Part shown: positions 4,499 through 39,095 of the stretch, piece after piece
Numbering within the stretch: the first letter of the stretch is position 1
How the letters are laid out: the number at the start of each line of letters is the position of its first letter
From: an uncultured Prevotella sp.
GTDB lineage: Bacteria > Bacteroidota > Bacteroidia > Bacteroidales > Bacteroidaceae
Assembly (NCBI GenBank): GCA_946999045.1
Contig: CAMQBR010000001.1
Location: forward strand, 33,324-97,323
Length of the DNA: 64,000 nt
Reading direction: 5' to 3'
Notes under the pieces: generated by a model
The model's input: only the letters and a program-made list of their open reading frames with translations
What the model was told of the DNA's origin: nothing
Database searches by the model: none
Made by a program: the position numbers and the translations under genes

Positions 4499-4691
4499 GG
4501 GCGGTTCTATAAATTACCACCGTAAAGTTTTTTATATCAGTTTTTTTACGTTTTTTCATCTTGTGGACTTTTTTTTGTTCAATTTGCTTGTTCGTTCAGT
4601 CTCGTATAGCTCACTATACTCCTTCACTCACAAACAAAGTGATCTCAAAAATAGCCTCACCATTTGTCAAAGCTAATTTATAGAACCGCCC
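4499..4691 (+). mobile_element. MITE-like element copy 1 (family 1), 193 bp, 18-bp TIRs, TSD ATTT
   Basis: GGGCGGTTCTATAAATTACCACCGTAAAG…GTCAAAGCTAATTTATAGAACCGCCC. Internal palindrome AGTATAGCnnGCTATACT. Flanked by ATTT on both sides. 227 bp upstream of the aspT start. Confidence 0.8.
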
Positions 4692-5200
4692 ATTTGTTTT
4701 TGTGCTGACGTTCAACCAAGCATCCTACCTTTAGCTTGAGATACAAATAAGCATTATTTTTTATGAAAAATATTTACTTACCCTTTCAATACTTGCGTAT
4801 TTGTCAGCAACAGCATTATTGCCCACAAATACAAGAATTTTGCACATTATTCATTATCAAAGAGTTATATTTTTTTATCTATTTTTTATTTCATAAAAAG
4901 CATACATTAGTCTTACTAACTCCATGCTTTAGGATGGTAAACTGTATGTAATTTCCAAGCTATTTCATGCAAATATCACCATTAACTCAATGCTTTAGTA
5001 AAAAAAAGTAACGCAACTGTCATTTTTACTCGTATTATCTACCTTCTTTTATTGCTTTTATTTTCCAGATTGAAAGTATATAAATTATCATTTTTCTTTA
5101 CATTCTTTATTTGCAATTTTTCTCGAAATTAGCTGTTATTATGCTTGAAGACTACTCTATATATTACAAATAATGTATGCTGTTGGCTCACCTAAAAAAA

Positions 5201-5228
5201 TCTGCGAAATTTGCGAAATCTGCGAGAA
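5201..5228 (+). repeat. Short tandem TGCGAAAT repeat (2.7 copies) in oxyR upstream region
   Basis: TCTGCGAAATTTGCGAAATCTGCGAG, about 125 bp upstream of the oxyR ATG. Confidence 0.4.
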
Positions 5229-5350
5229 AAATAATACTTCATAAGAAAATATATCACTGAAACACAATATCATTTAACCTATATTACGCATTTCATATTG
5301 TGGCTTTTATTGAAAATATGTACCTTTGTATAAATTAATAAGACACTACT

Positions 5351-6277
5351 ATGACTTTACAACAGCTTGAATATATGATGGCAGTGTACAGATTAAGGCA
5401 CTTTGCTAAAGCAGCCGACTATTGCCATGTTACACAACCAACACTTAGCTCAATGATTCAGAAATTAGAAGACGAATTAGGTGTTAAAATATTTGACCGC
5501 AAGAAACAACCTATTGGGGTTACTTCGGTGGGCGAAGCCATTATAGAACAAGGTTGGAAAGTATTGGTAAATGCTCATAAGGTTACTGAGGTAGTAAAAG
5601 AGGAGAAGCATTCTATTAGCGGAACATTCCGTATTGGCATTCTGCCAACCATTGCTCCGTATCTTATTCCAAGGTTTTTTCCACAACTCATGAATGAGTT
5701 TCCAGATATGGATGTACGTATCGTGGAAATGAAAACCAATGAGATACGTCAGGCGTTGCAGAGAGGTGATATAGATATGGGCATTGTTGCCGACCTTTGC
5801 GACATGGATGAGTTTGACAAGCAGACATTGTTTTTTGAACAGTTCTTTGCATACGTTGCCAAAAACGATCCGCTCTATCAAAAGAACAATGTAAAGATAA
5901 GTGATTTGGTTGGCGAATTTTTATGGTTGTTGGATGAGGGACATTGCTTTAGAGACCAATTGGTGAAGTACTGCCAACTAAAGGCTGCCAACACTAGCAA
6001 GAAGGCTTATAGCTTAGGAAGTATTGAGACCTTTATGCGCATAGTAGAAAGTGGAAAGGGTGTTACCTTTATTCCAGAATTGGCAGTGTATCAGTTAAAC
6101 GACAGTCAAAAAAAACTTGTAAAGCCATTTGCCATTCCTGTTCCTACTCGCGAAATTGTAATGATAACACAAAAGGATTTTATCCGTCATCGGCTTCGCC
6201 AGTTATTAGTAGATCGTATAAGAGCCAGCATACCCAAAGAGTTGCTAACATTGAGCAAGATGCAAAGGGCTATATGA
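5351..6277 (+). CDS. oxyR: Hydrogen-peroxide-inducible genes activator OxyR (LysR family)
   Basis: CHVTQPTLSSMIQKLEDELGV HTH closely matches E. coli OxyR. Redox-cysteine pair conserved with exact spacing (GHCFRDQLVKYC vs GHCLRDQAMGFC). Confidence 0.85.
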   Translation: MTLQQLEYMMAVYRLRHFAKAADYCHVTQPTLSSMIQKLEDELGVKIFDRKKQPIGVTSVGEAIIEQGWKVLVNAHKVTEVVKEEKHSISGTFRIGILPTIAPYLIPRFFPQLMNEFPDMDVRIVEMKTNEIRQALQRGDIDMGIVADLCDMDEFDKQTLFFEQFFAYVAKNDPLYQKNNVKISDLVGEFLWLLDEGHCFRDQLVKYCQLKAANTSKKAYSLGSIETFMRIVESGKGVTFIPELAVYQLNDSQKKLVKPFAIPVPTREIVMITQKDFIRHRLRQLLVDRIRASIPKELLTLSKMQRAI

Positions 6278-6318
6278 GCCTTTTATAGCTCAAAAATAAA
6301 TCAAAAAAATCTAAAAAA

Positions 6319-6338
6319 GTTAATTTATAGAACCTACC
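6319..6338. repeat. Solo terminal repeat of MITE family 1
   Basis: GTTAATTTATAGAACCTACC matches the right TIR. Immediately followed by a partial family-2 repeat (6341-6480). Confidence 0.45.
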
Positions 6339-6340
6339 TA

Positions 6341-6480
6341 TACTCTTTCGCCCCTTACAGGGGTATTAGTTTATTGAATGAAGAATTATCACCAATATTT
6401 AAGTAATAAGCCCCCTACACTATGCTATATCGTTCTTTCATAACTTGTAGTTATTTCAGCCCCTCCCTTTGGAAAAAAAT
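6341..6480. repeat. Partial family-2 repeat copy C
   Basis: CGCCCCTTACAGGGG…ATTGAATGAAGAAT…AAGCCCCCTACACTATGCTATATCG shares blocks with 961-1070 and 42240-42400. Confidence 0.35.
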
Positions 6481-6597
6481 GGGGGTAACTTATAACAATA
6501 AACAAGAGTTATGTTCACTGAGCTAACAGGTATTTGTCTGATAACTCCTATAAACTACTTATTTACTCATATTAATTCCTTGGCGTCTTTCAAAATT

Positions 6598-8868
6598 ATG
6601 AATTATGTAGATGTTGTCGTACCATTGCCATTAGAGGGTACATTTACTTATTCTGTACCAGACAACTTAATAGATAAGGTACAGTTTGGAGTACGTGTTG
6701 CTGTAACGTTCGGTACATCTAAGGTACATACTGCCATTGTAGTTTGTATACACAACGACACACCAGCCTTTAAGGTAAAAGATATTATTGCTGTTATTGA
6801 CAATACCCCTATGCTCATACAACAACAATATAAGCTGTGGCAATGGATATCATCTTATTACTTGGCATTCATCGGTGATGTTTATAATGCAGCATTGCCT
6901 GCTGGACTCAAGGTTGAAGAAAACTATAAACCACGAACCGAAACGTATATTGACCTGTGTGAGCCATATAAAAACGAACAGGCATTACACTTAGCACTCA
7001 ATTTACTGAAGCGTGCTCCCAATCAGCAAGAGGTTTTAATGAACTTCTTGCACATATCTCATTGGGAAACCATTCGTGGTGACCAATTAACTGAGCCTAT
7101 TGTGGATATTACCCGAGAGGAGTTGATGAACGTTTCGCATTGTACCTATGCCACTGTAAAACGATTAATAGAGCGAAAAATATTGCATACCTACGAACGA
7201 GAAGTGGGACGCCTCAACAATATGGGCGAAGAACATATTGAAAGAGTAAAACAACTAAACGATGCACAACAAGAAGCCTACAACCAAATTGTATTTCAGT
7301 TTCTGAAAAAGAATGTTGTTTTGTTACACGGAGTTACATCCTGTGGCAAAACAGAAATCTATATACATCTTATAAAAAAGGCACTAGAAGATAAGAAACA
7401 GGTGCTTTATTTGTTGCCAGAAATTGCATTAACGGTTCAAATAACCAGCAGGTTACGGCATGTGTTTGGCAACAAATTAGGCATTTATCACTCTAAATAC
7501 AGCGATGCCGAACGGGTGGAAATATGGAAAAAACAGTTATCCACCAACCCTTACGAGGTGATATTAGGTGTGCGAAGTGCCGTGTTCTTACCCTTTCAAC
7601 GACTCGGTTTGGTTGTGATTGACGAGGAACACGAAACCTCTTTTAAACAACAAGACCCCTCACCACGTTATCATGCTCGCTCGGTTGCCATTATGCTGGC
7701 ACAGATGTATGGGGCAAAAGCATTGTTGGGAACAGCTACTCCCTCCATGGAAAGTTACTACAATGCGAGACAGGGTAAGTATGGGTTGGTAACATTATCT
7801 ACGAGATACAAGGGTATTGAGTTGCCAAAGATAAATATTGTTGACATAAAAGACCTGCAACACCGCAAGATGATGACGGGGCCTTTCTCGCCTATACTGA
7901 TAAAGGCTATCAATGAGGCACTCAATAACAACCAACAGGTTATTTTGTTTCAAAACCGACGTGGCTTTGCACCTATGATAGAGTGCCACACTTGTGGTTG
8001 GGTTCCTAAGTGTACCCATTGTGATGTATCGCTTACCATGCACAAAACCATGAATTTACTGACGTGCCACTATTGCGGATACACGTATCAAATACCAACA
8101 GTGTGTCCGGCTTGTGGGGAAACCGACTTGCGGGGACGTGGATATGGAACTGAGAAGGTAGAGCAATATGTTAACCAATTGTTTCCACAAGCCAGAGTAG
8201 CACGTATGGATTTAGATACTACTCGTACCCGAAATGCGTACGAACGATTGATAGATGATTTTTCGTGTGGAAGAACTAACTTACTAATTGGTACACAAAT
8301 GGTTAGTAAAGGATTAGATTTTGACTGCGTGAGCGTTGTGGGAATACTTAATGCAGACTCAATGTTAAATTATCCCGACTTTCGTTCTTACGAACATGCG
8401 TTTATGATGATGGAGCAGGTAAGTGGCAGAGCAGGACGAAAAGGCAAACGTGGTACCGTATTTTTGCAAACAAAGAATAAGGATTTGCCGATTATACAAC
8501 AAGTAGTAAACAACGATTATCAAGGCTTCTTTACATCTTTGTTAGATGAGCGTAAGGCTTTTTCTTATCCTCCTTTTTATCATTTGATTTATGTTTTTTT
8601 ACGTCATCGCTACGAAAATGTAGTTGAAACTGCATCGGTAGAATTGGGTAGTAGATTGCGTCAGGGATTAAAAGAGCGCGTGTTAGGTCCTGACAAGCCT
8701 ACCATTGCTCGTATCAAGAATTTATATATTCGTAAAATTGTTATTAAATTGGAGAATGGTATCAACTTTCAGGCTGTTCGACAATATCTCCGTACCATCC
8801 AGCAACAGCTGTTGCAGGATAAGCGTTATGCCTCACTACAGGTGTATTACGATGTAGATCCGTTATAG
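6598..8868 (+). CDS. priA: Primosomal protein N' (replication restart helicase PriA)
   Basis: DEEHE (DEAH box). Cys-rich zinc fingers (CHTCGWVPKCTHCD…CHYCGY…CPACG). Helicase motifs. Start moved to MNYVDVVVPLPL (ATG 6598); the track ORF from 6511 adds an unlikely N-terminal extension. Confidence 0.9.
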   Translation: MNYVDVVVPLPLEGTFTYSVPDNLIDKVQFGVRVAVTFGTSKVHTAIVVCIHNDTPAFKVKDIIAVIDNTPMLIQQQYKLWQWISSYYLAFIGDVYNAALPAGLKVEENYKPRTETYIDLCEPYKNEQALHLALNLLKRAPNQQEVLMNFLHISHWETIRGDQLTEPIVDITREELMNVSHCTYATVKRLIERKILHTYEREVGRLNNMGEEHIERVKQLNDAQQEAYNQIVFQFLKKNVVLLHGVTSCGKTEIYIHLIKKALEDKKQVLYLLPEIALTVQITSRLRHVFGNKLGIYHSKYSDAERVEIWKKQLSTNPYEVILGVRSAVFLPFQRLGLVVIDEEHETSFKQQDPSPRYHARSVAIMLAQMYGAKALLGTATPSMESYYNARQGKYGLVTLSTRYKGIELPKINIVDIKDLQHRKMMTGPFSPILIKAINEALNNNQQVILFQNRRGFAPMIECHTCGWVPKCTHCDVSLTMHKTMNLLTCHYCGYTYQIPTVCPACGETDLRGRGYGTEKVEQYVNQLFPQARVARMDLDTTRTRNAYERLIDDFSCGRTNLLIGTQMVSKGLDFDCVSVVGILNADSMLNYPDFRSYEHAFMMMEQVSGRAGRKGKRGTVFLQTKNKDLPIIQQVVNNDYQGFFTSLLDERKAFSYPPFYHLIYVFLRHRYENVVETASVELGSRLRQGLKERVLGPDKPTIARIKNLYIRKIVIKLENGINFQAVRQYLRTIQQQLLQDKRYASLQVYYDVDPL

Positions 8869-8993
8869 ATACCTGTCCTTATTATCTTAGGGAATATTTT
8901 TGAGTTAAGGGCAGTTCTATAACTTTTATGTTGAACTTAGAGCTTTATGGTTAGCTCCCTTACTATATCACTTGCTTTTCATAGGTTGTAAGG

Positions 8994-9013
8994 ACGCACG
9001 GCTCGTGCGTCCG
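8994..9013 (+). terminator. GC-rich hairpin downstream of priA (GGACGCACG-GCTC-GTGCGTCC)
   Basis: Perfect 8-bp stem with 4-nt loop about 125 bp after the priA stop. No U-tract, which is common in Bacteroidetes. Confidence 0.35.
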
Positions 9014-9089
9014 CTCATTAATAATCATACCAACTTAAAATTCTACGAATAAATCAAATTATTTTGTACCTTTGCCTAAAATATATTTT

Positions 9090-14416: not shown

Positions 14417-14440
14417 GAATAAGGTAAATATACCCTATAA

Positions 14441-22606: not shown

Positions 22607-22719
22607 GGGTGTTTCTATCAATTAGCTTTGACAAATTGACCTCAAAAAGAGCCCACAAGATGACAAAACGTAAAAAGACTGACATAAAAACTTTACGGTG
22701 GTAATTTATAAAACCGCCC
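22607..22719 (-). mobile_element. MITE-like element copy 2 (family 1, internally deleted, 113 bp), TSD ATTA
   Basis: GGGTGTTTCTATCAATTAGCTTTGAC…CTTTACGGTGGTAATTTATAAAACCGCCC. Lacks the central palindrome. 98 bp upstream of manC. Confidence 0.7.
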
Positions 22720-22817: not shown

Positions 22818-23900
22818 ATGGTAGAAAACAACTATTGCATTATACTTGCAGGTGGAAAGGGTAAACGTTTGTGGCCCTGCAGCAGAGAGGAAAAACCAAA
22901 ACAATTTATCGACTTCTTTGGAACTAAACAAACCTTACTTCAACAAACATACAAAAGAATGTTAAAGGTAGTTCCTAAAGAAAATATTCTCATAAGTACT
23001 AATAAAACATACTTAAAATGGGTGAAAGAGCAATTACCATCGGTTTCAGAAGATAGCATATTAGCCGAACCTATACACCGAAACACAGCTCCAAGTGTAG
23101 CATGGGCTGCACATCGCATATTAAAATTTAATGCCAATGCCAATTTATTAGTAGCACCGTCCGATCAAATTATTTTTAATGAAGAGGCATTTATAAAAGA
23201 TATTCAGAAAGGATTTAGATTTGTTAAACAAAAAGAAGGATTGCTTACCTTAGGTATAAAACCTACCCGCCCCGAACCTGGATATGGATATATACAATTA
23301 GGTGAACCTTTAGGTAATGATTTGTATAGCGTACAATCATTTACCGAAAAACCAGAAAGATATTTTGCCACCATGTTTGTTAAAAGTGGAGAATTTTATT
23401 GGAACACAGGTATGTTTATATCAAACATTGCATTTTTATCACATTGTATTAATAAGTTTTTGCCGTTTGTATTGGGTAACCTTGATACAATGAACCCTCA
23501 TTGGACTATTGAAGAAGAAAATCAATTTATTAATGACAACTATCCTCTCTATCCTAATCTATCAGTTGATTACGGTGTACTAGAAAAATCAGAACACGTA
23601 TACGTAATGAAATGTAGCTTTGGTTGGGCAGATATTGGTACATGGCATAGCATTTACGAGGCTATGCAGAAAAGTGAAAATGATAATGTAGTAATAGATA
23701 GTGATGTTATTTTAGAAGAAAGTCATAATAATGTAATTAAACTTCCTAAAGGTAAACTTGGCATCATTAACGGACTCGATGGATATATCATTGCCGAACA
23801 TGGTAACGTACTGCTTATTTGTAAAAAAGAAGATTCATCCGCATTAGTTAGAAAATATGTAAACAAAGCTCAGATAAAAAAAGGAATTGATTTTATATAA
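22818..23900 (+). CDS. manC: Mannose-1-phosphate guanylyltransferase
   Basis: IILAGGKGKRLWPCSREEKPKQF nucleotidyltransferase N-terminus. 360 aa with no PMI domain. Confidence 0.8.
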   Translation: MVENNYCIILAGGKGKRLWPCSREEKPKQFIDFFGTKQTLLQQTYKRMLKVVPKENILISTNKTYLKWVKEQLPSVSEDSILAEPIHRNTAPSVAWAAHRILKFNANANLLVAPSDQIIFNEEAFIKDIQKGFRFVKQKEGLLTLGIKPTRPEPGYGYIQLGEPLGNDLYSVQSFTEKPERYFATMFVKSGEFYWNTGMFISNIAFLSHCINKFLPFVLGNLDTMNPHWTIEEENQFINDNYPLYPNLSVDYGVLEKSEHVYVMKCSFGWADIGTWHSIYEAMQKSENDNVVIDSDVILEESHNNVIKLPKGKLGIINGLDGYIIAEHGNVLLICKKEDSSALVRKYVNKAQIKKGIDFI

Positions 23901-23903
23901 TAA

Positions 23904-24089
23904 GGCAGGTTCTATAAATTATCACCATATATAGTTAGTAAATTTTACGAAATACGTTTTGTTTCCTTTTGGCTTCTTTTTATAGAAAATAGGCTACAAA
24001 TCAGATAAACTTAATTGTATTCGGTCTACACTTTTTTCGATTCAAAAATAAATTAAAAAATCTAACAAGGCTAATTTATAGAACCAACC
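23904..24089 (+). mobile_element. MITE-like element copy 3 (divergent interior, same TIR type), TSD ATAA
   Basis: GGCAGGTTCTATAAATTATCACC…AAGGCTAATTTATAGAACCAACC. Begins 4 bp after the manC stop. Confidence 0.55.
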
Positions 24090-24214
24090 ATAACATCTAA
24101 AAAAAAACTTGTACATATTTTTAACACAGATAAAACATAATCACACTAAACATTAGGTTGCATTTTTTATCTGTGGTTAGGTAATTTTGAAAAACTACAC
24201 TCCCACTTATTTAT

Positions 24215-24534
24215 TTATCAACAAAAAGTGTAGATAACTATGTTTATAACCTCTGTATAACTCACAATTTACTAACACTACCTTAAATTAACCAAACAAG
24301 AAGTAGATATCCACATAGTTATCACAGCTATTTACCTATAATATCCACAGTTTTTCAACGAAAAAAAATATCAACTTATTAACAATACCCGTATAACTCG
24401 CTCTTTGTTGATAACTATTATAAGTAACAGATACACAACAAAAAGATATTATTCCAATAGGTGTATAATAGAAAACATAAATTTAATAACTAAATAGAGA
24501 AATATTTAGATAAAAATTTATCAACATATCCACA
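24215..24534. promoter_or_regulatory. Cluster of DnaA-box-like 9-mers in AT-rich gene-free region (candidate oriC / DnaA-binding locus)
   Basis: TTATCAACA (24215), TTATCTACA rc (24229), ATATCCACA (24307), TTATCACAG (24319), ATATCCACA (24341), GTTATCAAC rc (24407), TTATCAACA (24518), ATATCCACA (24526). Six are within 1 mismatch of TTATCCACA in 320 bp. Confidence 0.35.
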
Positions 24535-24750
24535 CTATATCATCCCTCTATTGTTTTATCTCTTTTAAATTTTAAAAAGAGTAAATATATAAATAGAGTG
24601 TTGAAAAGAAGAAGAAGAATAATATTGGACATACACTTCTATTTATTGAATTTTTTTTAAGAAATAGTAGGTATTATGTTGCAACTGCTAACATTAATGA
24701 GATTACTTTTAAGTGAGCCACTCCATTTTATAAGGATACCTACCTATCAA

Positions 24751-24765
24751 ATTATAGAACCGCCC
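24751..24765. repeat. Solo MITE family-1 terminus
   Basis: ATTATAGAACCGCCC. Confidence 0.35.
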
Positions 24766-24866
24766 TATGTAAAGAATGATAATAGATATATTTTTATTAG
24801 TTTCTTCAAAAAAAATATTCCTAAAAAATATATATACTTAGATAAATATATTTATATTTGTATAAA

Positions 24867-25058
24867 GGGCGGTTCTATAGATTAGCTTTGACAGATTGTG
24901 AGACTATTTTTGAGGTCAATTTGTTTGTAAGCGAAGGAGTATAGCGAGCTATACTCCTGAACGAACAAGCAAATTGAACCAAAAAGAGTCCACAAGATGA
25001 TAAAACGTAAATAGACTGGCATAAAAAAACTTTACGGTGGTAATTTATAGAACCGCCC
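24867..25058 (-). mobile_element. MITE-like element copy 4 (family 1, 192 bp), TSD TAAA
   Basis: Reverse orientation. The ACCACCGTAAAG end lies 34 bp upstream of the 25092 ATG. Flanked by TAAA. Confidence 0.8.
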
Positions 25059-25091
25059 TAAAATAATTTCAACTCATTTATTTATTAGTTT

Positions 25092-26255
25092 ATGAAATAT
25101 ATATATAGTAAACTTCAAACTGTTATGTTAGAGAAAAATATTCTCTTTATTCTTTATTTTTTGATTAATTTACTATTCATTATAAAATATGGCTCACGAG
25201 TAACTAACATTCCTATTCTTTTTATTGTTATCATAAGTTACTTTTTTATTGTATATATAACTTTGAAGATATGCCAACGAATAAAAAATGTTAATAGTTT
25301 ATGTTTATTATTTTTTGTTTGTATATTTTTATTTTTATGGATATTAGGGCAATATAGTATAGATCCTATGAGTATAAAAGTAGATAGGTGGTCAGCTATT
25401 CATAATTTTATAAATTATTTTTTAGATGGTAAATATCCCTATTTAGCTCAAACTCATTTAGGAGGTTATGGTTCTCCATTTCCTATTTGGCAAATATTTC
25501 ATATTCCGTTTTATTTATTAGGGAATGTAGGATTGTCTATTTTTGCTATTTTTTCTTATTTTATTTATGTACAAAAAAGAATTTTAGGTAATCAATACGC
25601 ATTAATTGTTTTATTTCTTTTTGTTCTTTCACCTGCTTTTTTATATGAAATTTTGGTAAGAAGTGATTTAGTAACAAATTTTCTTCTATTGAGCTCTTTT
25701 CTACAAATAGTTCTATATAAAGGTAAAAATTTACAGAACTCTTTTTATAGTATTGCTATTTTATGTGGATTATTTTTAAGTACTCGCTTAAGTATAGCGA
25801 TAGCTTGTATTATCTTCTTTTTTCCTTCGTATTTACAATTATCTATAAAAAGAAAGATATTGTTTCCTCTATTGGTGATAATTATTTTTTCTTTTACATT
25901 TCTACCATTTATTATTTGGAATATGGATGAATTATTTTTCTTTAAATATAATCCTTTTATATTACAAACAAGACAAGGTAGTATACTTGATGTTCTATTT
26001 ATTTGCTTAATAATATGTTATATAGTTATTAGATTAAAGGGTGATTATTTAAAAACTTTCTGTAATATAGCATATGCCTATATTTTGTTTATAGCTTTTG
26101 TAGCTATCCATCTTATAATTTCAGTTCAAAGTTATGATGTATTCTTAACGTCTTTATTTGATATAACCTATTTTGATATGTCGTTACCATTTTTAATATG
26201 TTCTTTGGGTATATATTTAGTAAAGAGAAGAATTAATAGCAAAAATATAAAATAA
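25092..26255 (+). CDS. Polytopic membrane protein, GT-C-like (DUF2029-like), very low GC
   Basis: 387 aa, at least 10 TM helices. Motif …THLGGYGSPFPIWQ… is analogous to the 11403-12593 protein. Strongly AT-biased codon usage. Confidence 0.4.
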   Translation: MKYIYSKLQTVMLEKNILFILYFLINLLFIIKYGSRVTNIPILFIVIISYFFIVYITLKICQRIKNVNSLCLLFFVCIFLFLWILGQYSIDPMSIKVDRWSAIHNFINYFLDGKYPYLAQTHLGGYGSPFPIWQIFHIPFYLLGNVGLSIFAIFSYFIYVQKRILGNQYALIVLFLFVLSPAFLYEILVRSDLVTNFLLLSSFLQIVLYKGKNLQNSFYSIAILCGLFLSTRLSIAIACIIFFFPSYLQLSIKRKILFPLLVIIIFSFTFLPFIIWNMDELFFFKYNPFILQTRQGSILDVLFICLIICYIVIRLKGDYLKTFCNIAYAYILFIAFVAIHLIISVQSYDVFLTSLFDITYFDMSLPFLICSLGIYLVKRRINSKNIK

Positions 26256-26283
26256 GCCCTGTATTTTATACTGGTATTATCTT

Positions 26284-28290
26284 CTACCTAATGATTGCTA
26301 TTTTACATATAGTTCCTTTATCTCCATTATTGTCAGCAGTTTGTACCATATATATGCCTGAAGCTACACGATTACCATTTAGGTCTTTTCCATCCCATAT
26401 AAATATACCTCCATTACTTCTTCCTGTTGAAACTAATATTCCGTTACTGGTAACTATTTTAATATCGGAGTTGAATGATAACCCTGTAATTGTTATTAGT
26501 CCATTATAATTAGGATCAACAGGATTAGGATAGGCATATACTGTCTCTTTCGTCATTTCTTTTTGTGCTAAATTTGCATCTGATAAGTATGAGCAGAGTC
26601 CTTTATCTGTACCAAAAAATACTTCTCCTGTTGTATTATTTATTGCAATAGATTCTATATTATTTGAAAGAAGCGGACTATTAGCTTTAGTAAAATGTTT
26701 AATCTCTTTTGTATAATCAGAACTTATAAGATATACTCCATTACCTAATGTTCCGAACCACAAACGATTAGCACCATCAATAGCCATAGAATAGATATGA
26801 ACTCCGTTCAATAAATAATCTGCTAAGTTTGTTCCATCGTTCCTATTAATCTTAATTTGTTCTAATTTTACATTATCATTTTGAGAAATTTGAGAGGCTT
26901 TTAATAAAAGAGGACCAGTGTTTGTTCCTATCCATATATTATGTTCTAAGTCTTCTGCAATACATTCAACTCTATTTACTTCTATTACATCATTATCTGT
27001 ATTGATAAATTTTTTGTATGATTTTAATAATTTTATTGATGGTTGATAACAGAAAAAAGAAGGAATAACCCAGTGTCGGTTAACAAACCACATCATAGAA
27101 CGGCTATCGAACATTAGTCCTTGCATAGCTCCTAAACTTTGCTTATTTTTATTTAATAATGCTGTTGTATGGTGCGATATCCATTTGCCTTCTTTAGTAA
27201 GTTCTATTATGGATTGTGAAGAAGCCATACTGTTAAGTAGCCATAAATTTCCGTCTTTGTCAAATTTGATAGATTCTATGACGGTATATATATTATTATT
27301 GCCTAATGCTGATTGTAGCGGACTATTATCAATATTATAGTGTTTTACTAATTTTTTATTTTTAAATTCATAAAGTCCTGTTCTTCCACTGACAAAAATA
27401 TGTGTATTATCGTTTGGATCTACATCAATTGATAGATTGTCTATATTTTGATGTCCTATTTTTTTTTCTAAATTGTCATCATAGATAATCCATTTATTAT
27501 TTGTGTCTAATATTTGCGCTGTTCCTAAACGTGCATCATCACCATCTGGCCCATATCCTCCACTTGTTGAATACAGTATATTGTTAATAACCTTAATACT
27601 CCCAAAGTAATTGTATTTTGGCCCTTCTGGGCGATATTTTTCGGCTTCTTTCTTTAGCTTTTCATCTAAAGGTTGTTTTTTTGGAGTAAATGCTCCTACA
27701 TATTTCCAGTTGTTTTTATCTAATAAATTACTGCTGAGTGCAGCTGAATATTTGCCATGAGATGATGACTCGGCAATAATTTTTCCATTGTTTATGTGCG
27801 ACCAGTTAACCTTAAACCCTAACTGGTAGGTGTCGCTAATCTCTGCTTTTCGCACATTGAGCTTAATGATACCAAAGTTAGTGGATAAATAAGCATAAAT
27901 ACCATCAATATCAACAGCATAAACAGTTTTCTCTTGGTTGATATCCTTGGTATAAAAGTCGGATATATTAACTATGTTGCCATGAAGATTTAACAAATCA
28001 ATATTACCATTTTTGTAGACGATAACCAGGCGTTTTACCGCCTTGTTATAAGCAATATGCGCAATATCCACATCGTTCAGTACAGTTGTTTTGTCGTATG
28101 TTTGTACGCTATTGTCGTTTTTATGATATGAAAAAAGTGCGCCCGATGCCAATACAAATATTGTGTTGCCAGCAGGTTGTATTTCTGTTATCTCGTAATA
28201 AGAAGGATACATTTTCCATGTTTCCACTTGTGCTATACCCGATAAATAACATACCATATATATTAATAAGGTGAGAAATACTTTTTTCAT
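26284..28290 (-). CDS. T9SS C-terminal-domain protein with two-component-regulator-propeller-type repeats
   Basis: Signal peptide MKKVFLTLLIYMVCYLSGIAQ, repeated beta-propeller blades, and a C-terminal Por-secretion sorting domain (…YPNPVDPNYNGLITI…ASGIYMVQTADNNGDKGTICKIAIIR). Confidence 0.6.
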   Translation of the reverse strand: MKKVFLTLLIYMVCYLSGIAQVETWKMYPSYYEITEIQPAGNTIFVLASGALFSYHKNDNSVQTYDKTTVLNDVDIAHIAYNKAVKRLVIVYKNGNIDLLNLHGNIVNISDFYTKDINQEKTVYAVDIDGIYAYLSTNFGIIKLNVRKAEISDTYQLGFKVNWSHINNGKIIAESSSHGKYSAALSSNLLDKNNWKYVGAFTPKKQPLDEKLKKEAEKYRPEGPKYNYFGSIKVINNILYSTSGGYGPDGDDARLGTAQILDTNNKWIIYDDNLEKKIGHQNIDNLSIDVDPNDNTHIFVSGRTGLYEFKNKKLVKHYNIDNSPLQSALGNNNIYTVIESIKFDKDGNLWLLNSMASSQSIIELTKEGKWISHHTTALLNKNKQSLGAMQGLMFDSRSMMWFVNRHWVIPSFFCYQPSIKLLKSYKKFINTDNDVIEVNRVECIAEDLEHNIWIGTNTGPLLLKASQISQNDNVKLEQIKINRNDGTNLADYLLNGVHIYSMAIDGANRLWFGTLGNGVYLISSDYTKEIKHFTKANSPLLSNNIESIAINNTTGEVFFGTDKGLCSYLSDANLAQKEMTKETVYAYPNPVDPNYNGLITITGLSFNSDIKIVTSNGILVSTGRSNGGIFIWDGKDLNGNRVASGIYMVQTADNNGDKGTICKIAIIR

Positions 28291-28305
28291 ATCATACCAC
28301 AACGT

Positions 28306-32897: not shown

Positions 32898-33089
32898 GGG
32901 TGTTCTATAAATTATACCACCGTAAAGTTTTTATGTCGGTCTTTTTACGTTTTGTTATCTTGTGGGCTCTTTTGGGTTCAATTTGCTTGTTCGTTCAGTA
33001 GTATAGCTCGCTATACTTTTTCACTCACAAACAAATTGATCCCAAAAAATACTCTCACAATTTGTCAAAGCTAATTTATAGAACCGCCC
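32898..33089 (+). mobile_element. MITE-like element copy 5 (family 1, 192 bp), TSD TTAT
   Basis: GGGTGTTCTATAAATTATACCACCGTAAAG…CTAATTTATAGAACCGCCC. 209 bp upstream of the leuS start. Confidence 0.8.
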
Positions 33090-33255
33090 TTATACATTTT
33101 ACTAAAAAGCTAACAACTTGTAAAGTTATATATAAAAAAATGTTGTTATATTTTTTCATTTTTATTTATAATCAATGAGTTATACTATTATTAAAAACAT
33201 TTTTATGTAGTCATATATTATTATTTTTTTTTCTATTTTATGGGACGCAACAATC

Positions 33256-33343
33256 TCATTGAGTTTGCAGCATAAAACCATTGAGTTTGCCCGTCAAAAT
33301 CATTGAGATTGTGCTTCAAAACCATTGAGATTGTATTTTTCAC
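33256..33343 (+). repeat. Four-unit direct repeat with exact 22-bp phasing (core CATTGAGWTTG)
   Basis: Units begin at 33256, 33278, 33300 and 33322: CATTGAGTTTGCAGCATAAAAC / CATTGAGTTTGCCCGTCAAAAT / CATTGAGATTGTGCTTCAAAAC / CATTGAGATTGTATTTTTCAC. Confidence 0.7.
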
Positions 33344-33369
33344 CTCAAGCTCTTATAGATGTAAAAAAT

Positions 33370-35049
33370 CTATTTAATAATGTTTTCAAAAATATTAGGA
33401 TAGTTTTGAATGGTGATAGATTTGCCCGAAATAGGATGAATAAATGTGATAGAGGCGGCATGTAAGTACAGCCGTTGGGCAGGAGAGCCGTAAAGTTCGT
33501 CGCCAATAATGGGAGAGTTTAAACCGTCTACATGAGCACAATGTATGCGTAATTGGTGGGTACGCCCCGTTTTTGGAAACAAAGAGATGTAGGTTTTGCC
33601 ATGTTTTACTTGCTGTACATGGTAGAAAGTAATGGTTCGTTTTCCATTGAGCTTATCTACTATTTGTCGGGGGCGGTCTAATAAATCGGGAGATAAGGGC
33701 AAATCAATCATGCCTTCTCGTTGCGTTACCTCTCCTTGCAATACCGCTACATATTGTTTTTGAATGGTGTGTTTTGCAAATTGTTGTTGTAAATGATGAT
33801 ACGTTTCTTTATTTTTTGCCAGTAATAGAATGCCCGAAGTAGCCATATCCAGGCGATGTACGGCATATAACTGAGTATTTTTTGGTAGCCAAGACTGGAT
33901 GATTGAATATACAGAGGGTTGATTGTTTTTGCCAGGTACCGATAGTAAACCCGAAGGTTTGTTTACTGCAATAAGGTTATTGTCTTCGTATAAGATAGTT
34001 GGTTTCAACGAATAATTTGTTTGTTTTATTTCTTTATCTACTGTTAATCCTTGTAACATAAAAGATAAGATGGGTAAACACTTACCCCGACAGGCAGGAT
34101 AATAGTTGCCATGGTGGCGAATAGTAGTAGCTGGTGAGGCTCCCCACCAAAACTCTGCCATACATATAGGTTGCAAATGGTGCAGAAAAGCGTATTGCAA
34201 TAGCTTTGGGGCACAGCACTCTCCTGCACCAGCTGGAGGTATAACTTGTGGGGTGGGCTCAAAAATTTCTAATAAATTGCGTTGTTCACCTTTGGCATTG
34301 AGTATAATAAAGTGTGAAAAGAGCCAGCGTTGCAACTGGTCGGATAGCTGCTTGCGCCTTATTTTATAATCTGTAATGGTTTGCTCATAGTTTTTTAGTT
34401 GAGTGCTAATGCTTTCTATATTCTTGTTAATGCGCTTCTTTAAGCGATGAAGTTCAGCTTTCATAAACTGACTTTCGTTGGTTAATTGAGCCAGCTGTTT
34501 GGGTGTAAGTATTTGTGTTTGCCGTAATTCATTGCGCTTTTTCTTGGCAACTTTTATCTCGTTTTTATACGCATTTAGTGCTTTTTCTCCTGCTAATACT
34601 TTTTCTTGCAATTGTTGTTTCAATAGACAATAGTTAGTATTATTTTGTAAGTTATCAATATCCTTATTTAGTTGTGTGATAATAGCCTCGTGCTGTTTAA
34701 AATATCCATTGGGTTGTAAATAATCGAAAATAGTTGGAACAAACCCTTCCCAATCGTTTCTCCCCTCAATTTGTCCAGAATAAGCACAAAGATAACCTAA
34801 GCCCAGTTGAGCATGTTCTACTACCAATACCCCAAACATCTTGCCTTGTTCTACCTCATGTTGCCATGCTTGCCAAACTTGTATGAAGTATTGTACTTGC
34901 TTCATTGCCAACAAACAAAGCGGATGCGGATGGTAATGAAAGGGATTATTCATCTGTATAGGCTTTTGGATGTTGGTGTGCAAAGGATGAAACCTATTTG
35001 AGAGAAAGGCTTTCAGGTTTATTTTATATTCGTGTTGTTGTGATTGCAT
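33370..35049 (-). CDS. RluA-family pseudouridine synthase with long N-terminal coiled-coil extension
   Basis: C-terminal …LIAVNKPSGLLSVPGKN…AVHRLDMATSGILLLAK… is the RluA catalytic core (HRLD). About 300 aa N-terminal region is rich in heptad-like K/E/Q. Confidence 0.7.
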   Translation of the reverse strand: MQSQQHEYKINLKAFLSNRFHPLHTNIQKPIQMNNPFHYHPHPLCLLAMKQVQYFIQVWQAWQHEVEQGKMFGVLVVEHAQLGLGYLCAYSGQIEGRNDWEGFVPTIFDYLQPNGYFKQHEAIITQLNKDIDNLQNNTNYCLLKQQLQEKVLAGEKALNAYKNEIKVAKKKRNELRQTQILTPKQLAQLTNESQFMKAELHRLKKRINKNIESISTQLKNYEQTITDYKIRRKQLSDQLQRWLFSHFIILNAKGEQRNLLEIFEPTPQVIPPAGAGECCAPKLLQYAFLHHLQPICMAEFWWGASPATTIRHHGNYYPACRGKCLPILSFMLQGLTVDKEIKQTNYSLKPTILYEDNNLIAVNKPSGLLSVPGKNNQPSVYSIIQSWLPKNTQLYAVHRLDMATSGILLLAKNKETYHHLQQQFAKHTIQKQYVAVLQGEVTQREGMIDLPLSPDLLDRPRQIVDKLNGKRTITFYHVQQVKHGKTYISLFPKTGRTHQLRIHCAHVDGLNSPIIGDELYGSPAQRLYLHAASITFIHPISGKSITIQNYPNIFENIIK

Positions 35050-35071
35050 CTTCTTTTCTCTATCTTTTATA

Positions 35072-35265
35072 GGGCAGTTCTATAAATTACCACCGTAAAG
35101 TTTTTTTTATGTCAGTTTTTTTACGTTTTGTCATCTTGTGGGTTATTTTTGGTTCATTTTGCTTGTTCGTTCAGTAGTATAGCGAGCTATAACTACTTCA
35201 CTCTCAAACAAATTGACCTTAAAAATAGTATCACAATCTGTCAAAGCTAATTTATAGAATCGCCC
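35072..35265 (+). mobile_element. MITE-like element copy 6 (family 1, 194 bp)
   Basis: GGGCAGTTCTATAAATTACCACCGTAAAG…CTAATTTATAGAATCGCCC. 23 bp upstream of the RluA-like start. Flanks TATA/TACA. Confidence 0.8.
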
Positions 35266-35315
35266 TACATTGTTTTTTGAGTTTGGCACTTATATGTGAG
35301 TTATTGGTACTTAAC

Positions 35316-38300
35316 CTACATTACCTTTGTTATTTTATGTGTTGTAACATTTAGTGCTGATATTAAAATAACTGGTTTGCTGCCACGGGTATCTTCTTTT
35401 TTCCACTTAATGGTGATAACTTTGTGTGCGCCTGGCATCAAATGGAAATAATTATCGGTATAATAAACAGGTAAAATTTGTTCGCCATCACTACCTTTTA
35501 GTTGTAAACGTATCATCATGGCAGGTGTTTGGGTAGGGTTATAGAGTGTTACTTCCATCTTGTCCTTATATTCGGTAACTGACTCTTGAAGCAATACTTG
35601 AGGTAAAGAATGGAGAGCTTGCAGGTTACCCTCATCTGTAGAACAAACATAAAAGTTGGTAGATAACTCTTTGTTGTTGGCATCAAGTAGTTTCATCTGC
35701 AGATAATATACCTTTGAACTAATGTCTGGAATGGGTATATAAGTGCATACCACGGTTGTATCAGGCTTAAGATTGATAACCGATTCGTATTGTTGAACTT
35801 TTTTGCCCCACATATCCAATACCTCACATTGCGCACGCAAGTTGCCCGATATGGCTTGATTGATATTGACAACCTCCATGTTTCGAGTACTTGCATTCCA
35901 CTGTATGTGTAATGGTTCACAAGCCTTCTTTACACCAAAGAAGGCTGCAGTGGGTTCAAAATAATAGTCGTATGTTTGCCATGTCATGCTGGGCCAACAA
36001 GGATGACTCATCCATATTAGTAACCCCAAACGATATTTACTGCCACTCTCAAACATAGCGCGATATCCATTGTAGTTTATCCACTGTGATAATTGTGTAA
36101 ATTGTTGTGCACTCTCAATTTTCCCAAAAGCCTTTTGAAGCATGGCATTAAACTCACTGCCACGCTGTGCCCCTTGTAAAACGTAATCGTGCTGTCCCCA
36201 TTCTTTGCATTGCTGCCACAAAGATTGTGGCGCCAGTGTACGGGCTAAGCCCTCGTATGTCATTATGTTAGGCATACCACGCTCAGAATGTAATTTACCT
36301 GTTTGACTTTCAAAGTAAGTTTTGTCAGGAACAGCCCAATAGGGACCGTGTCCACTTACGCCATCATCTGCCGAACTGGAGATATACAATAGTCCTGGAT
36401 GTTGCGTTTTTACATCTTTCTGTAATGTATCATTTATATCTTTAGGAGGATATCCCTCGTTTCGTCCGCAGTACAAAGCAATGCTCGGATGTTGTCTGAT
36501 GCGATAAATATAATCTTTAGCATTACGTAAGAACATAGAATGATTTTGCGGATCGGGGCCATCGGCAGGGTTAGCCAACCAAAAATCTTGCCATACCATG
36601 ATGCCATAGTGGTCGCAAGCATCGTAAAATTCTTTATCACCTGTTTGTCCTACCCAGTTACGTATCATGTTACAGTTCATGTATTTATGATACTTTACAG
36701 CAATATCATATTCGCGTGCTCTGTAATTAAGGTTATTCTCACTAAATCCCCAATTTCCTCCAAGTGGCACAAATCGTTTTCCATTGATATATAAGGTAAG
36801 ACGAGTATTAACATCTTTGTAACTCATCTGTCGGATGCCTGCCCGATAATGTAGTTCGTTTTGCGTTTTTCCGTTTATTTGGAATGTATAACCTGCATCG
36901 TAAAGATAAGGCTCTCCATAGCCATTAGGCCACCACAAGTGCATGTGTTGATGCTGCAGTGAGGTATAAAGTGAAGGTAAAAATGATGTTTCTACTGTGG
37001 CATGAGCTGGTAGCATAATACTCTTTTCAAACGTGTTATTACCTATCCATCCTTTTAGTATGCCCAATATGCGGTGTGATTCGTTATTAGTGAGCAAGAC
37101 AGAAGGTGTTAGTGTAGCCAGTGTATCGGGCAAATTGAGTTGAGAAGTAACTACAGGGTCGCTTAAAGTAACGCTACCCTCTTGTGTTAGGTACACATCG
37201 TTCCATATACCAATGTTGCGCCCACGAATGGTAGAAATCCAGTCCCACCCTATTGTAGCATGAAATGTAGGATTATCTGCCCCCAAGATACCCCCATTAA
37301 AATCGGTATTAAGCTGGTTTTTTTCTTTCACTGCCCCAGGGTGTTGTGTCTTGATAATTTCTACAGCCAGCACATTTTGTCCCTCCTTTAGTAGTTGGGT
37401 AACATCTGTTTTGCTACGAATAAAAGCCCCTTCTATACGATTGATACGCTTTCCGTTAAGGAAAATATTGGCTTTCCAGTTAATGCCGTCAAAATTGAGG
37501 AATATATGTTGCTGTAATTTTTCTTTTGAAATGTTGAATGTTTTGCGATACCAAAAGTTGGAGTTGAAAAACGATTCGGACACTAAAAATAGATTGTCGG
37601 CTATATTAGGATTGGCAAGTGCACCTATATTTACATAACTTGTAAGTACGGTAGCTGGTACTGTTGCTACAATCCAGCCAGCATCATTATAGTAAGGTAG
37701 TGAGAGTTGTTCGCCAGTGGCCTGCACCTGCGATGCACGTTGCAAATGCCAGTTGCCACCATTCAGTGATAATAGGTTATTATGCCATATACTTTCTTTA
37801 GTAGCATGAGCTATTAATCCTCCTCTTCCCATTACTTCTACTTCACTTAGCACAAAAGGCTTTCCATTCTTTGAAGCTTGCATATTTACTCTGATGTAGC
37901 GAGCTTGTGCACGACAATTTATTACTTCATTGGTTTTATCTGCAGAAGAAAGTTTTGAAATGTTAGTCCAATGTACATTATCTACTGATACTTGTATTGA
38001 GCCTAGTGTAGCTTTGTTAAGCCAATGTAATTTTATTTGATTGAATGAAGCTTGTGTTCCCAAATCAATCTTCACCCATTCGTTGTGGTTTGTGGCACTC
38101 ATCCATGCACTCTTAAAGACAGCCGATGGCAATACATTGGTTACTGGAATACTGCTTTGTGCAAAGTTTATTTGTGTAACAGTCCAGTATGCTGCTCCTG
38201 GCATATCCAGTTGTAAGCGCAAACCTCGCAAAAGTGGTTCGCTATGATGTAGGTTAAACGATAAATTTACATTGCGGGTGGGCAACAATTCGGCATTAGT

Positions 38301-38882
38301 AACTTTATTAGGGTCGCTGTGTACCTTGTATTTTGAAGCTGTTCCAGGTAACGAATTGCCATGCTGTTGTGCTATTACTATCCATTTTCCGTTGCTGTTG
38401 GGTGCTAATAATTTGATAGAATAGCCTTTGTTAGCTTGCTTTTCGTAGTAAGCAACATGAGCTACTAAGCTTATTTTATTGGCTTTAACTGCCATATTCT
38501 TCCACTGATATTGCAGAAAAGCCTGATTGCCTATAAGGATGTTATGCGTATATTCGCCTCTGTCAATTGCCCATTCACGTTCTCTTCGTGGTAAAACACC
38601 TTGATTGGTGGTTACTATCATATAAGATGGCATCTTGTTAGTGATGATGCCATCGGTAACAAGTTGTGCCGTGAGGTTATAATCATAACTCGAAGAGTGG
38701 TATGTTTTGCAATGTAATGCTATATTGCGGTATGTGCTATCTATTTGTAATGTAGGTGCATAGCACTCTTTTGGGTTGCCTGGATAGATGCCAATGCCAC
38801 GGGTATAGGTTTGAGAAATAATACTATTATGCGTAAAAGTAATAATGCATAAGAATATGAGAAATGTTTTTTTTATAGTCAT
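35316..38882 (-). CDS. Secreted glycoside hydrolase, GH2-like multidomain with F5/8 type C (discoidin) domain
   Basis: Signal peptide. Discoidin-like …NEWVKIDLGTQASFNQIKLHW…. GH2-like sugar-binding/Ig/TIM segments (…GIMVWQDFWLAN…, …YCGRNEGYPP…). Confidence 0.5.
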   Translation of the reverse strand: MTIKKTFLIFLCIITFTHNSIISQTYTRGIGIYPGNPKECYAPTLQIDSTYRNIALHCKTYHSSSYDYNLTAQLVTDGIITNKMPSYMIVTTNQGVLPRREREWAIDRGEYTHNILIGNQAFLQYQWKNMAVKANKISLVAHVAYYEKQANKGYSIKLLAPNSNGKWIVIAQQHGNSLPGTASKYKVHSDPNKVTNAELLPTRNVNLSFNLHHSEPLLRGLRLQLDMPGAAYWTVTQINFAQSSIPVTNVLPSAVFKSAWMSATNHNEWVKIDLGTQASFNQIKLHWLNKATLGSIQVSVDNVHWTNISKLSSADKTNEVINCRAQARYIRVNMQASKNGKPFVLSEVEVMGRGGLIAHATKESIWHNNLLSLNGGNWHLQRASQVQATGEQLSLPYYNDAGWIVATVPATVLTSYVNIGALANPNIADNLFLVSESFFNSNFWYRKTFNISKEKLQQHIFLNFDGINWKANIFLNGKRINRIEGAFIRSKTDVTQLLKEGQNVLAVEIIKTQHPGAVKEKNQLNTDFNGGILGADNPTFHATIGWDWISTIRGRNIGIWNDVYLTQEGSVTLSDPVVTSQLNLPDTLATLTPSVLLTNNESHRILGILKGWIGNNTFEKSIMLPAHATVETSFLPSLYTSLQHQHMHLWWPNGYGEPYLYDAGYTFQINGKTQNELHYRAGIRQMSYKDVNTRLTLYINGKRFVPLGGNWGFSENNLNYRAREYDIAVKYHKYMNCNMIRNWVGQTGDKEFYDACDHYGIMVWQDFWLANPADGPDPQNHSMFLRNAKDYIYRIRQHPSIALYCGRNEGYPPKDINDTLQKDVKTQHPGLLYISSSADDGVSGHGPYWAVPDKTYFESQTGKLHSERGMPNIMTYEGLARTLAPQSLWQQCKEWGQHDYVLQGAQRGSEFNAMLQKAFGKIESAQQFTQLSQWINYNGYRAMFESGSKYRLGLLIWMSHPCWPSMTWQTYDYYFEPTAAFFGVKKACEPLHIQWNASTRNMEVVNINQAISGNLRAQCEVLDMWGKKVQQYESVINLKPDTTVVCTYIPIPDISSKVYYLQMKLLDANNKELSTNFYVCSTDEGNLQALHSLPQVLLQESVTEYKDKMEVTLYNPTQTPAMMIRLQLKGSDGEQILPVYYTDNYFHLMPGAHKVITIKWKKEDTRGSKPVILISALNVTTHKITKVM

Positions 38883-38903
38883 TAGTTTTGATGATTTGTT
38901 TAA

Positions 38904-39095
38904 GGGCGGTTCTATAAATTACCACCGTAAAGTTTTTATGTCAGTCTTTTTTTACTTTTTGTCATCTTGTGGACTCTTTTTGGTTCAATATTCTTGTTCG
39001 TTCAGTTGTATAGCTCGCTATACTCCTTCGCTCACAAACAGGTTGACCTCAAAAATAGTTTCACAATCTGTCAAAGCTAATTTATAGTACCGCCC
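38904..39095 (+). mobile_element. MITE-like element copy 7 (family 1, 192 bp), perfect 5-bp TSD TTAAG
   Basis: …TTTAAG|GGGCGGTTCTATAAATTACCACCG…ATAGTACCGCCC|TTAAGTAG…. 22 bp upstream of the glycosidase start. Confidence 0.85.

Follow-up and report, generated by a model that had tools for sequence, protein, structure and literature searches.

The 64,000-bp stretch of an uncultured Prevotella sp. analysed here (contig CAMQBR010000001.1, positions 33,324 to 97,323, hereafter called the window) carries several copies of a short intergenic repeat which, with a probability that we put at about 90%, represents a family of transposed MITEs (miniature inverted-repeat transposable elements) that extends over the whole of the Prevotellaceae, is bounded by terminal inverted repeats (TIRs) of 18 bp and generates a target-site duplication (TSD) of 4 bp. 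Elements of this type are already known, and the family does not represent a novel sort of system. The family had been proposed in a sequence-only reading of the window, which described seven copies of a previously unrecognised MITE-like repeat of about 192 bp.

When both strands of the window were searched for the 18-bp terminus GGGCGGTTCTATAAATTA with up to 3 mismatches, 20 matches were found, compared to 0.04 expected from dinucleotide-preserving shuffles of the same sequence. The pairs formed by these matches correspond exactly to the seven elements of the sequence-only reading, whose positions were borne out by direct reading of the ends and by an alignment in which the seven align end to end (Table 1). 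A profile built from copies in other genomes (nhmmer) also retrieved all seven, with E values down to 1e-62. All window copies are intergenic, and in the alignment the common termini that had been described are found, as are subterminal sequences shared by the copies and, at the centre, the palindrome GTATAGC..GCTATAC. A consensus derived from 49 copies has a length of 192 bp, a perfect 18-bp TIR and ends that begin with GGG. Its six-frame translation contains no coding remnant, in agreement with the absence of coding capacity noted from the window. The 113-bp copy is an internal deletion, as had been said, and the copy described as having a divergent interior (23904) belongs to a second subfamily, with the TIR GGCWGGTTCTATAAATTA (GGCAGG/GGTTGG..); its match to the full-length profile is weak because its interior differs from that of the main subfamily. 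At least five further remnants were detected in addition to the seven elements.

The evidence for transposition comes from the insertion sites. After removal of orthologous duplicates, 116 unique sites were available, 77 of which are flanked by a perfect 4-bp duplication and 19 by a duplication with one mismatch. The same test at offsets of 4 to 12 bp gave 0 to 2 of 116, so the duplications far exceed what chance matches between AT-rich flanks would give; in the first set of loci, 53 of 81 had been perfect. With reverse complements pooled, the perfect TSDs are TAAA (19), TTAA (16), ATAA (11), TATA (10) and ATTA (5), others being rarer, and none of the 77 is CTAG, CTAA or TTAG. The duplications that had been read at the window copies were found again (Table 1), but only the lower value of the proposed length of 4 to 5 bp stands: the left-side G of the 'perfect TTAAG' at the copy starting at 38904 is the first base of the element, and the TSD is therefore TTAA, 4 bp and not 5.

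Filled and empty alleles were found at four independent loci in genomes that are ~92-97% identical, and the difference between them is in each case exactly the element plus one tetranucleotide. The empty site GGGTTAT-AATAAGG of L036 (L numbers denote individual retrieved loci) is filled in L028, L031, L050, L140, L190 and L218, where TTAT is duplicated; the empty site GGGCTATAGTCCG of L144 is filled in L058, with TATA duplicated; and the empty site GCCTTAAAACTTC of L044 is filled in L138 and L162, with TTAA duplicated. At the fourth locus, the empty site CCGCTTTAGCG of L004 is filled in L057 and L087, where TTTA is duplicated and its left copy now reads TATA. Furthermore, a second-subfamily element at 2616-2873 of L051 lies within the terminus of another copy of the family (GGGCGGTTCTATAAA[element]TAAATTACCACCG), with the host TAAA duplicated. 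Taken together, the TSDs, the empty sites and the nested insertion rule out a regulatory site spread by descent, as the sequence-only reading had argued, as well as a hairpin-type single-strand transposon that makes no target duplication. Spread solely by duplication of larger segments was also considered and is contradicted by the data in hand.

Insertion is thus precise, at AT-rich tetranucleotides (TAAA, TTAA, ATAA, TATA) that are each duplicated on both sides of the element. The conserved ends would be bound by a DDE-type transposase supplied in trans, and this enzyme would cut the target with a 4-bp stagger.

Elements of the family range from 52 to 261 bp, with two main classes of ~192 and ~256-258 bp and shorter deletion forms of ~52, 113, 130 and 171 bp. 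The long class is the 192-bp class with a 64-bp module (ATATAAAACAGGCTGCGCCTCAACAATTCAAACAAGTTTGATTGTATTCGGCTTGCTCCGTTTTTGG) inserted after ..GGACTCTTTTT, and is otherwise identical to it. Both forms occur as alleles of the same insertion. The copy at 38904 is 192 bp long in the window and in L102 and ~256 bp long in most other strains (L096 at about 5955-6211, L097-L101, L103), and at the L036 site one filled allele has 257 bp (L140) and five have 193 bp (e.g. L028). The module boundaries are identical at both polymorphic loci and lie between A5/T5 runs. An independent mobile unit was rejected as an explanation of the module, which has the same boundaries at each loss or gain and is almost never found outside elements; it reads as an internal segment that is lost and regained through slippage or conversion between copies.

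Two larger units bounded by family termini were also found. The first, of 1506 bp (L051, 1551-3056), has termini with 1 and 0 mismatches and a perfect TTAT duplication, encodes a 281-amino-acid (aa) Fic-domain protein with the motif HPWVDGNGR, and appears to be a cargo-carrying derivative; its right end is a complete element, the very one that holds the nested second-subfamily copy. The other is a 798-bp element (L017, 87-884) with a 113-aa open reading frame (ORF) without family assignment. This element contains a large GC-rich palindrome (GGGCTGAAAGCCC.. / ..GGGCTTTCAGCCC), and its left subterminal sequence (CCNCCGTACWAACA) is also found in L042 and L065. The ends of the family are constant, and its interior is modular.

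The whole element folds as one long hairpin on either strand (z about -12 compared to shuffled sequences), with a fold energy of -67.8 kcal/mol for the strand running from the CCACCG to the GCTTTG end and of -79.2 kcal/mol for the opposite strand. Covariation was assessed in an alignment of 45 copies of the 192-bp class from many genomes. Among the 51 pairs predicted by RNAalifold, 16 contain changes on both sides with pairing kept, compared to 4.2 +/- 1.5 in shuffled alignments, none of 500 of which reached 16, and to 4-12 in slid controls. Counted by alignment cell, 44 are changed on both sides, against 7.4 after shuffling and at most 12 in slid controls. The double changes cluster in the internal helix (9 of its 14 pairs); pair 33-133, for instance, is U-A in 32 copies and C-G in 13, and in the 45 copies 97% pairing is seen for helix 1, formed by columns 1-18 and 190-207. 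These compensatory changes indicate that the fold-back is under constraint, acting either on DNA, e.g. through recognition by a transposase or as a cruciform, or on RNA. An intrinsic terminator was discarded, as in the consensus no T run comes after the central hairpin, whichever strand is read.

The family is not confined to the window. More than 200 TIR-bearing loci were retrieved in total from Prevotellaceae genomes and metagenomes. At least 95 of them came from a scan of 185,579 species-representative genomes, where nearly all belong to Prevotella or other Prevotellaceae, and a metagenome collection provided 108 additional loci. The carriers among the matches listed include Prevotella corporis DSM 18810 (L007), P. 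ihumii, Hoylesella timonensis, Prevotella sp. BV3P1, Prevotella sp. SGI.027 and many metagenome-assembled genomes (MAGs) from the gut and elsewhere, a single one of which has more than 40 TIR loci among those matches. A few bins labelled Lachnospiraceae, Oscillospiraceae or Akkermansia also matched and are probably mis-binned contigs, and two exact TIR matches in Niabella and Pedobacter were dismissed as chance 18-mers within coding sequence. No TIR match was found in 72,556 plasmids or in 50,697 phage genomes, and viral contigs contain only two real occurrences. An IMG/VR contig of 54% G+C (L107) has variants at 1621-1793 and 8913-9049 with the same termini and an ATAA duplication, the interior of which consists of 11-bp tandem repeats (ACTAGGTGGGA-like). 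The family thus reaches high-GC relatives and a contig classed as viral.

The five window copies for which a comparison with other strains was possible (23904, 24867, 32898, 35072 and 38904) are present in all same-species contigs, i.e. contigs 99-100% identical to the window, all from metagenome assemblies, and are therefore old and fixed in the species. Among themselves, the window copies have 84-90% identity, but for no copy is the nearest relative another window copy. The closest matches of each are near-consensus copies of other species, with up to 95.8% identity, compared to ~73-75% DNA identity for orthologous genes between the window and the closest named genomes (Prevotella) among the fetched loci. 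In the copy-rich MAG, copies are up to 98% identical, and the nearest relative of 14 of 20 lies in the same genome. A conserved source may thus have moved between Prevotellaceae lineages and been amplified in them at different times, after which individual copies would decay in place. The solo termini, of which 50 were found in the first 95 loci, fit this picture of decay.

The sequence-only reading had concluded that an autonomous partner transposase must exist elsewhere in the genome. This conclusion is reasonable but has stayed unconfirmed: neither the 1.67 Mb of TIR-bearing DNA nor the collections of plasmids, phages and viral contigs yielded an insertion sequence (IS) with such ends. The search covered inverted terminus pairs up to 4 kb apart with up to 6 mismatches, with and without a filter for TSDs. 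Long repeats common to several loci, short repeat-bounded contigs and viral contigs searched with both TIR variants likewise yielded no transposase with these ends. The same was true of the 50 solo termini: the ORFs beside the solo ends of L015, L043, L084, L065, L016, L011, L086, L045 and L074 are host genes only, e.g. SDR, RmuC, Skp/BamA, L17 and GalE-like genes. Two terminus pairs that might have been the partner, those of the 798-bp and 1506-bp units, enclose passenger genes and no transposase. A third candidate, a frameshifted IS4-like transposase pseudogene in L053 (about 230-1170, N-terminus MNKSTHFIGQPMYGQ..), has unrelated inverted repeats of its own (TTGCTGTCCGGTAAAACT); an element copy lies ~2 kb away. 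Since IS copies commonly interrupt the assembly of draft genomes and MAGs, this negative result is weak.

As to the kind of enzyme, a 4-bp duplication and GG/GA ends would best fit the IS5 group among the ISfinder families, with IS701 or ISAzo13 as alternatives, whereas IS1380 has the right duplication length but ends that begin with CC. The 4-bp TSD and the GGG ends of the family agree with these IS5-group features. However, IS5-group targets are typically YTAR, to which the targets found here (TAAA, TTAA, ATAA and TATA, never CTAG, CTAA or TTAG) correspond poorly, and no IS5-like transposase gene with these ends was present in the 1.67 Mb of TIR-bearing loci.

The elements show a biased orientation with respect to flanking genes. 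In the window, all six copies with a clear orientation have their CCACCG end toward the 5' end of the neighbouring gene, and three of them (38904, 35072 and 24867) lie 22-34 bp from a start codon. The same tendency was seen in 98 unique oriented elements, for which genes were called simply as ORFs: 58 of 76 GCTTTG ends are turned toward a stop codon and 41 of 73 CCACCG ends toward a start codon (Fisher p=5.7e-5). Where the two neighbouring genes are co-directional, transcription would enter via the GCTTTG end in 23 cases and via the CCACCG end in 10 (p=0.035), and a start codon lies no more than 50 bp away from 21 CCACCG ends versus 8 GCTTTG ends (p=0.024). In 13 independent insertions the CCACCG end lies 16-24 bp upstream of an ATG and is separated from it by an A-rich spacer; the transcript of such a gene would have to cross the element or begin within it. 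The strand favoured in this way, from GCTTTG to CCACCG, is the one with the more stable RNA fold, and it is also the only strand with perfect Bacteroidota -7 boxes (TAnnTTTG), namely TAGCTTTG at position 17 and TATTTTTG at position 39.

These features resemble those of the Correia elements (CREE) of Neisseria and the ERIC elements of enterobacteria including Yersinia, which are small TIR-bounded fold-back MITEs situated near genes and co-transcribed with them. Their RNA hairpins have been shown experimentally to affect mRNA processing and stability in an orientation-dependent manner, and Correia ends can create promoters. What the present family has in common with them is a biased orientation, an asymmetric hairpin and, as promoter-like sites, the -7 boxes, with effects at the RNA level being suggested here by these features. 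No sequence relationship was seen, and Correia elements, 100-155 bp long with 26-bp TIRs, duplicate TA, unlike the 4 bp duplicated here. The element would probably act as a portable 5' or intercistronic hairpin, possibly also as a promoter module, that is tolerated or favoured in one orientation.

A bolder version of this idea, which we regard as rather improbable, is that the family constitutes a horizontally spreading, orientation-sensitive expression cassette of the Prevotellaceae, with a selected fold-back, orientation-dependent retention, a non-conventional mobiliser and gene shuttling. Copies may then be retained preferentially where the GCTTTG-to-CCACCG strand is transcribed into the downstream gene, and may have equipped dozens of housekeeping genes with -7 boxes and/or with a hairpin that serves stabilisation or processing. 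The mobiliser may be, for example, a single-copy enzyme resident in the host or borne by a conjugative element, and not an IS with the same ends, which would explain the lack of autonomous copies. The cargo forms, with the Fic gene of L051 and the small ORF of L017, may make it a gene-shuttling system.

Several observations weigh against parts of the main interpretation, a transposed MITE family with probable effects on neighbouring genes. The window organism shows no sign of current activity, the five copies that were checked being fixed, no autonomous element with these ends came to light in the sequences searched, and the IS5 group is a candidate assignment suggested by general family features. 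The double changes in the fold-back occur mostly in a few divergent copies (L054, L060, L072 and L089) and so represent few independent events. The evidence for a promoter is weak, as a -33 TTTG at the usual distance is missing from both -7 boxes, one of them overlaps or abuts the terminus, where conservation may serve transposase binding, and we estimate that ~0.25 perfect -7 boxes per element would be found by chance. The gene calls underlying the orientation bias are crude ORF calls, and the bias could partly stem from the mechanism of insertion or the direction of replication rather than from selection.

The lack of a partner in the 1.67 Mb and in the other collections would also be expected of an orphan family, the autonomous partner of which is extinct or the transposase of which has different ends of its own, so that the copies are immobile relics that were retained or co-opted. 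The 84-90% mutual identity and the fixation of the window copies, together with the abundance of one-ended remnants, agree with such a scenario, which we consider unlikely, though the most serious of the alternatives: insertion polymorphism exists between genomes of about 94-95% identity, near-consensus copies (up to 98% identical within one MAG and up to 96% between species) imply that the family was active long after the species had separated, and the absence of an IS is weak evidence in drafts and MAGs, which assemble IS copies poorly. It is far less probable that the repeat is a structured RNA gene or a cis-regulatory hairpin with a host function, spread by recombination or duplication without transposition. 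The strong fold (z about -12), compensatory covariation in excess of the controls, the orientation bias relative to genes and the fixation of several copies within the species could all be expected of such an RNA. However, it would account neither for the exact 4-bp duplications at 77 of 116 sites nor for the filled and empty alleles at four loci and the nested insertion; moreover, the termini are the most conserved part, the interiors are modular (64-bp module, 11-bp tandem repeats of L107, cargo of L017 and L051), and no Rfam family matches. A host function gained after insertion may well be part of the transposition model itself. The dominant hairpin and the position of the insertions next to AT-rich tetranucleotides also recall IS200/IS605-kind hairpin elements (PATE) or other single-strand transposons, which insert beside a fixed tetranucleotide without duplicating it. 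This explanation is hardly credible, since the tetranucleotide differs from copy to copy and flanks both sides, is single in the empty alleles and thus truly duplicated, and the extreme ends are perfect inverted repeats and not subterminal hairpins.

Among known repeats, one to be compared is PINSR, a 188-bp intergenic repeat with 177-184 copies in P. intermedia, mostly position-conserved between strains, which is specific to the P. intermedia/nigrescens group and was reported to have no TIRs and explicitly not to be a MITE (PMC4755523). Both repeats are intergenic, amplified in Prevotella and of similar size (188 versus 192 bp), and the present family might in principle be PINSR with other boundaries. 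This possibility is extremely remote, as the two differ in TIRs, sequence and distribution. The published primer pair PINSR-F/-R (Table S2), which produce a 149-bp amplicon (PMC4755523), match no element copy with up to 4 mismatches, primer R having a few matches outside elements, and identity with PINSR was ruled out on these grounds; the 18-bp TIRs found here are those reported to be lacking in PINSR. Finally, the PINSR polymerase chain reaction (PCR) was negative in P. corporis and P. amnii (PMC4755523), whereas P. corporis DSM 18810 carries the present family.

The MITEs of Porphyromonas gingivalis, an oral, host-associated member of the Bacteroidales (BrickBuilt, MITEPgRS/MITE464, MITE239 and MITE700), are likewise non-coding, intergenic and TIR-bounded, some have modular interiors with tandem repeats, and a 4-bp TSD was confirmed by filled and empty sites for BrickBuilt_4 (PMC4596501). 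They share TIRs with ISPg elements, have IS5-family elements as their parents and are presumably mobilised in trans by transposases of that family (PMC4596501), whereas no such partner was found for the family described here in the sequences searched. They can be excluded as its identity, their termini being unrelated (GAGACC.../ACGTCAG... versus GGGCGGTTCTATAAATTA), and they are present in 10-20 copies per genome (PMC4596501), compared here to seven copies plus remnants in 64 kb and to the more than 40 TIR loci of one MAG among the matches listed. In the searchable literature, neither the TIR nor its core occurs in any relevant paper, no Prevotella MITE has been named and PINSR is the only Prevotella intergenic repeat that was found. 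The earlier description of the family as previously unrecognised is therefore right in so far as it is not PINSR and its terminus is absent from that literature, but a census of 2024, in which automated MITE detection in 46,051 Bacteroidota genomes gave 81,380 distinct MITEs without description of families (PMC11602168), may well include it in its lists already.

The elements and remnants of the window are listed in Table 1.

Table 1. Elements of the family and their remnants in the window (positions are those of the window; E values are from nhmmer with the profile of copies from other genomes)
Feature	Position	Strand	TSD	Profile or terminus	Surroundings
Full element, 193 bp	4499..4691	+	ATTT	E=8.7e-57	CCACCG end at 4499; between divergent YidE-like transporter gene (start 4270) and oxyR (start 5351)
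Second-subfamily right-end remnant (..GTTAATTTATAGAACCTACC)	6280..6338	+		terminus 6321-6338, 2 mismatches; 76% identical to 24031-24089	immediately 3' of oxyR stop codon
Weak terminus-like match, possibly a decayed remnant (low confidence)	8909..8926	+		3 mismatches	41 bp past priA stop
Internal-deletion derivative, 113 bp	22607..22719	-	ATTA	keeps profile positions 1-89 and 161-192	between divergent starts of MsbA-like ABC transporter gene and mannose-1-phosphate guanylyltransferase gene
Second-subfamily element, 186 bp	23904..24089	+	ATAA	weak full-length match, E=3.6e-8	begins 4 bp past stop of gene 22818-23900
Solo terminus (CAAATTATAGAACCGCCC), one-ended remnant	24748..24765	+		2 mismatches	
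Full element, 192 bp	24867..25058	-	TAAA	E=1.7e-62	CCACCG end 34 bp upstream of 387-aa ORF start (25092)
Full element, 192 bp	32898..33089	+	TTAT	left terminus degenerate (GGGTGTTCTATAAATTATACC)	between leuS (start 32688) and RluA-family gene stop (33370)
Full element, 194 bp	35072..35265	+	TATA/TACA, one mismatch		CCACCG end 23 bp upstream of RluA-family gene start (35049); GCTTTG end 51 bp past GH2-like gene stop
Full element, 192 bp	38904..39095	+	TTAA		CCACCG end 22 bp upstream of GH2-like gene start (38882)
Second-subfamily right-end remnant (..CACAGCTAATTTATATAACCAGCC)	42581..42613	+			adjoins cytidylyltransferase-like gene stop; piece of internal module just upstream, at 42538-42557
173-bp segment of element fragments	43365..43537	-		right-arm-like start and 64-bp module at 43395-43464 (reversed)	present in window lineage and L219, missing from other same-species contigs
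Second-subfamily mini derivative, 89 bp	54855..54943	+	no clear TSD	termini with 2 and 3 mismatches	just past stop of 796-aa ORF

The surrounding DNA, with a G+C content of 36%, is housekeeping chromosome of a Gram-negative member of the Bacteroidota, a low-GC Prevotellaceae. Its genes include leuS, priA, oxyR, mutS and those for a Kdo transferase, an MsbA-like exporter, a lipid A acyltransferase and PorZ, together with many glycosyltransferase genes and a SusC/SusD pair. Annotation of the window genes with Pfam and NCBIfam revealed no transposase, a scan of the whole window with Rfam 15 at gathering thresholds gave no match, and a scan for tRNA and tmRNA genes found none.

Some local features were observed around the elements. 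The region 24001-26300 is very AT-rich (24.6% G+C at 24001-26000) and contains two elements, the solo terminus and the 387-aa ORF (25092-26255), which matches nothing in Pfam or NCBIfam. In two further strains (L098 and L099) the contig stops within or near this ORF, and the region, which lies beside a lipopolysaccharide (LPS)/glycosyltransferase cluster, may be strain-variable. In the intergenic DNA that separates the 32898 copy from the end of the RluA-family gene, a 22-bp unit (..AAAACCATTGAGTTTG..) is present three times in tandem (33251-33333) and is not related to the element. At 42555-42591, beside the terminus remnant, strains L097 and L099 (about 2365-2395) have ~65 bp more, repeating TTGGGTTTACATTGTTTTTTGATTCAAAATATAAC, a further small indel polymorphism alongside element debris. 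Beyond the segment at 43365-43537, identity to other strains falls from >99.5% to ~98.9%, which hints at a recombination boundary. The 796-aa ORF (54949-57339, minus strand), the stop codon of which adjoins the mini element, has a sub-threshold helix-hairpin-helix hit as its only family match.

The family stands above a routine MITE description by its broad distribution, its maintained fold-back, its modular and cargo-carrying variants, its orientation bias with placement 16-24 bp from start codons, and the lack so far of a partner. The Prevotellaceae make up a major part of the microbiota of the gut, mouth and vagina, and good descriptions of their mobile DNA are scarce. In practical terms, the family accounts for many of the breaks between contigs and of the spurious small ORFs seen when Prevotella genomes are assembled, its insertion polymorphisms are usable as strain-typing markers, and naming its transposase would yield a candidate tool for genetic work on organisms that do not lend themselves easily to it. 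It also flags genes whose 5' regions were remodelled, in the window the GH2-like glycosidase gene, the RluA-family gene, leuS and the 387-aa ORF of the LPS-related region. Should promoter or RNA-hairpin activity underlie the orientation bias, these elements would generate regulatory variation throughout an entire bacterial family.

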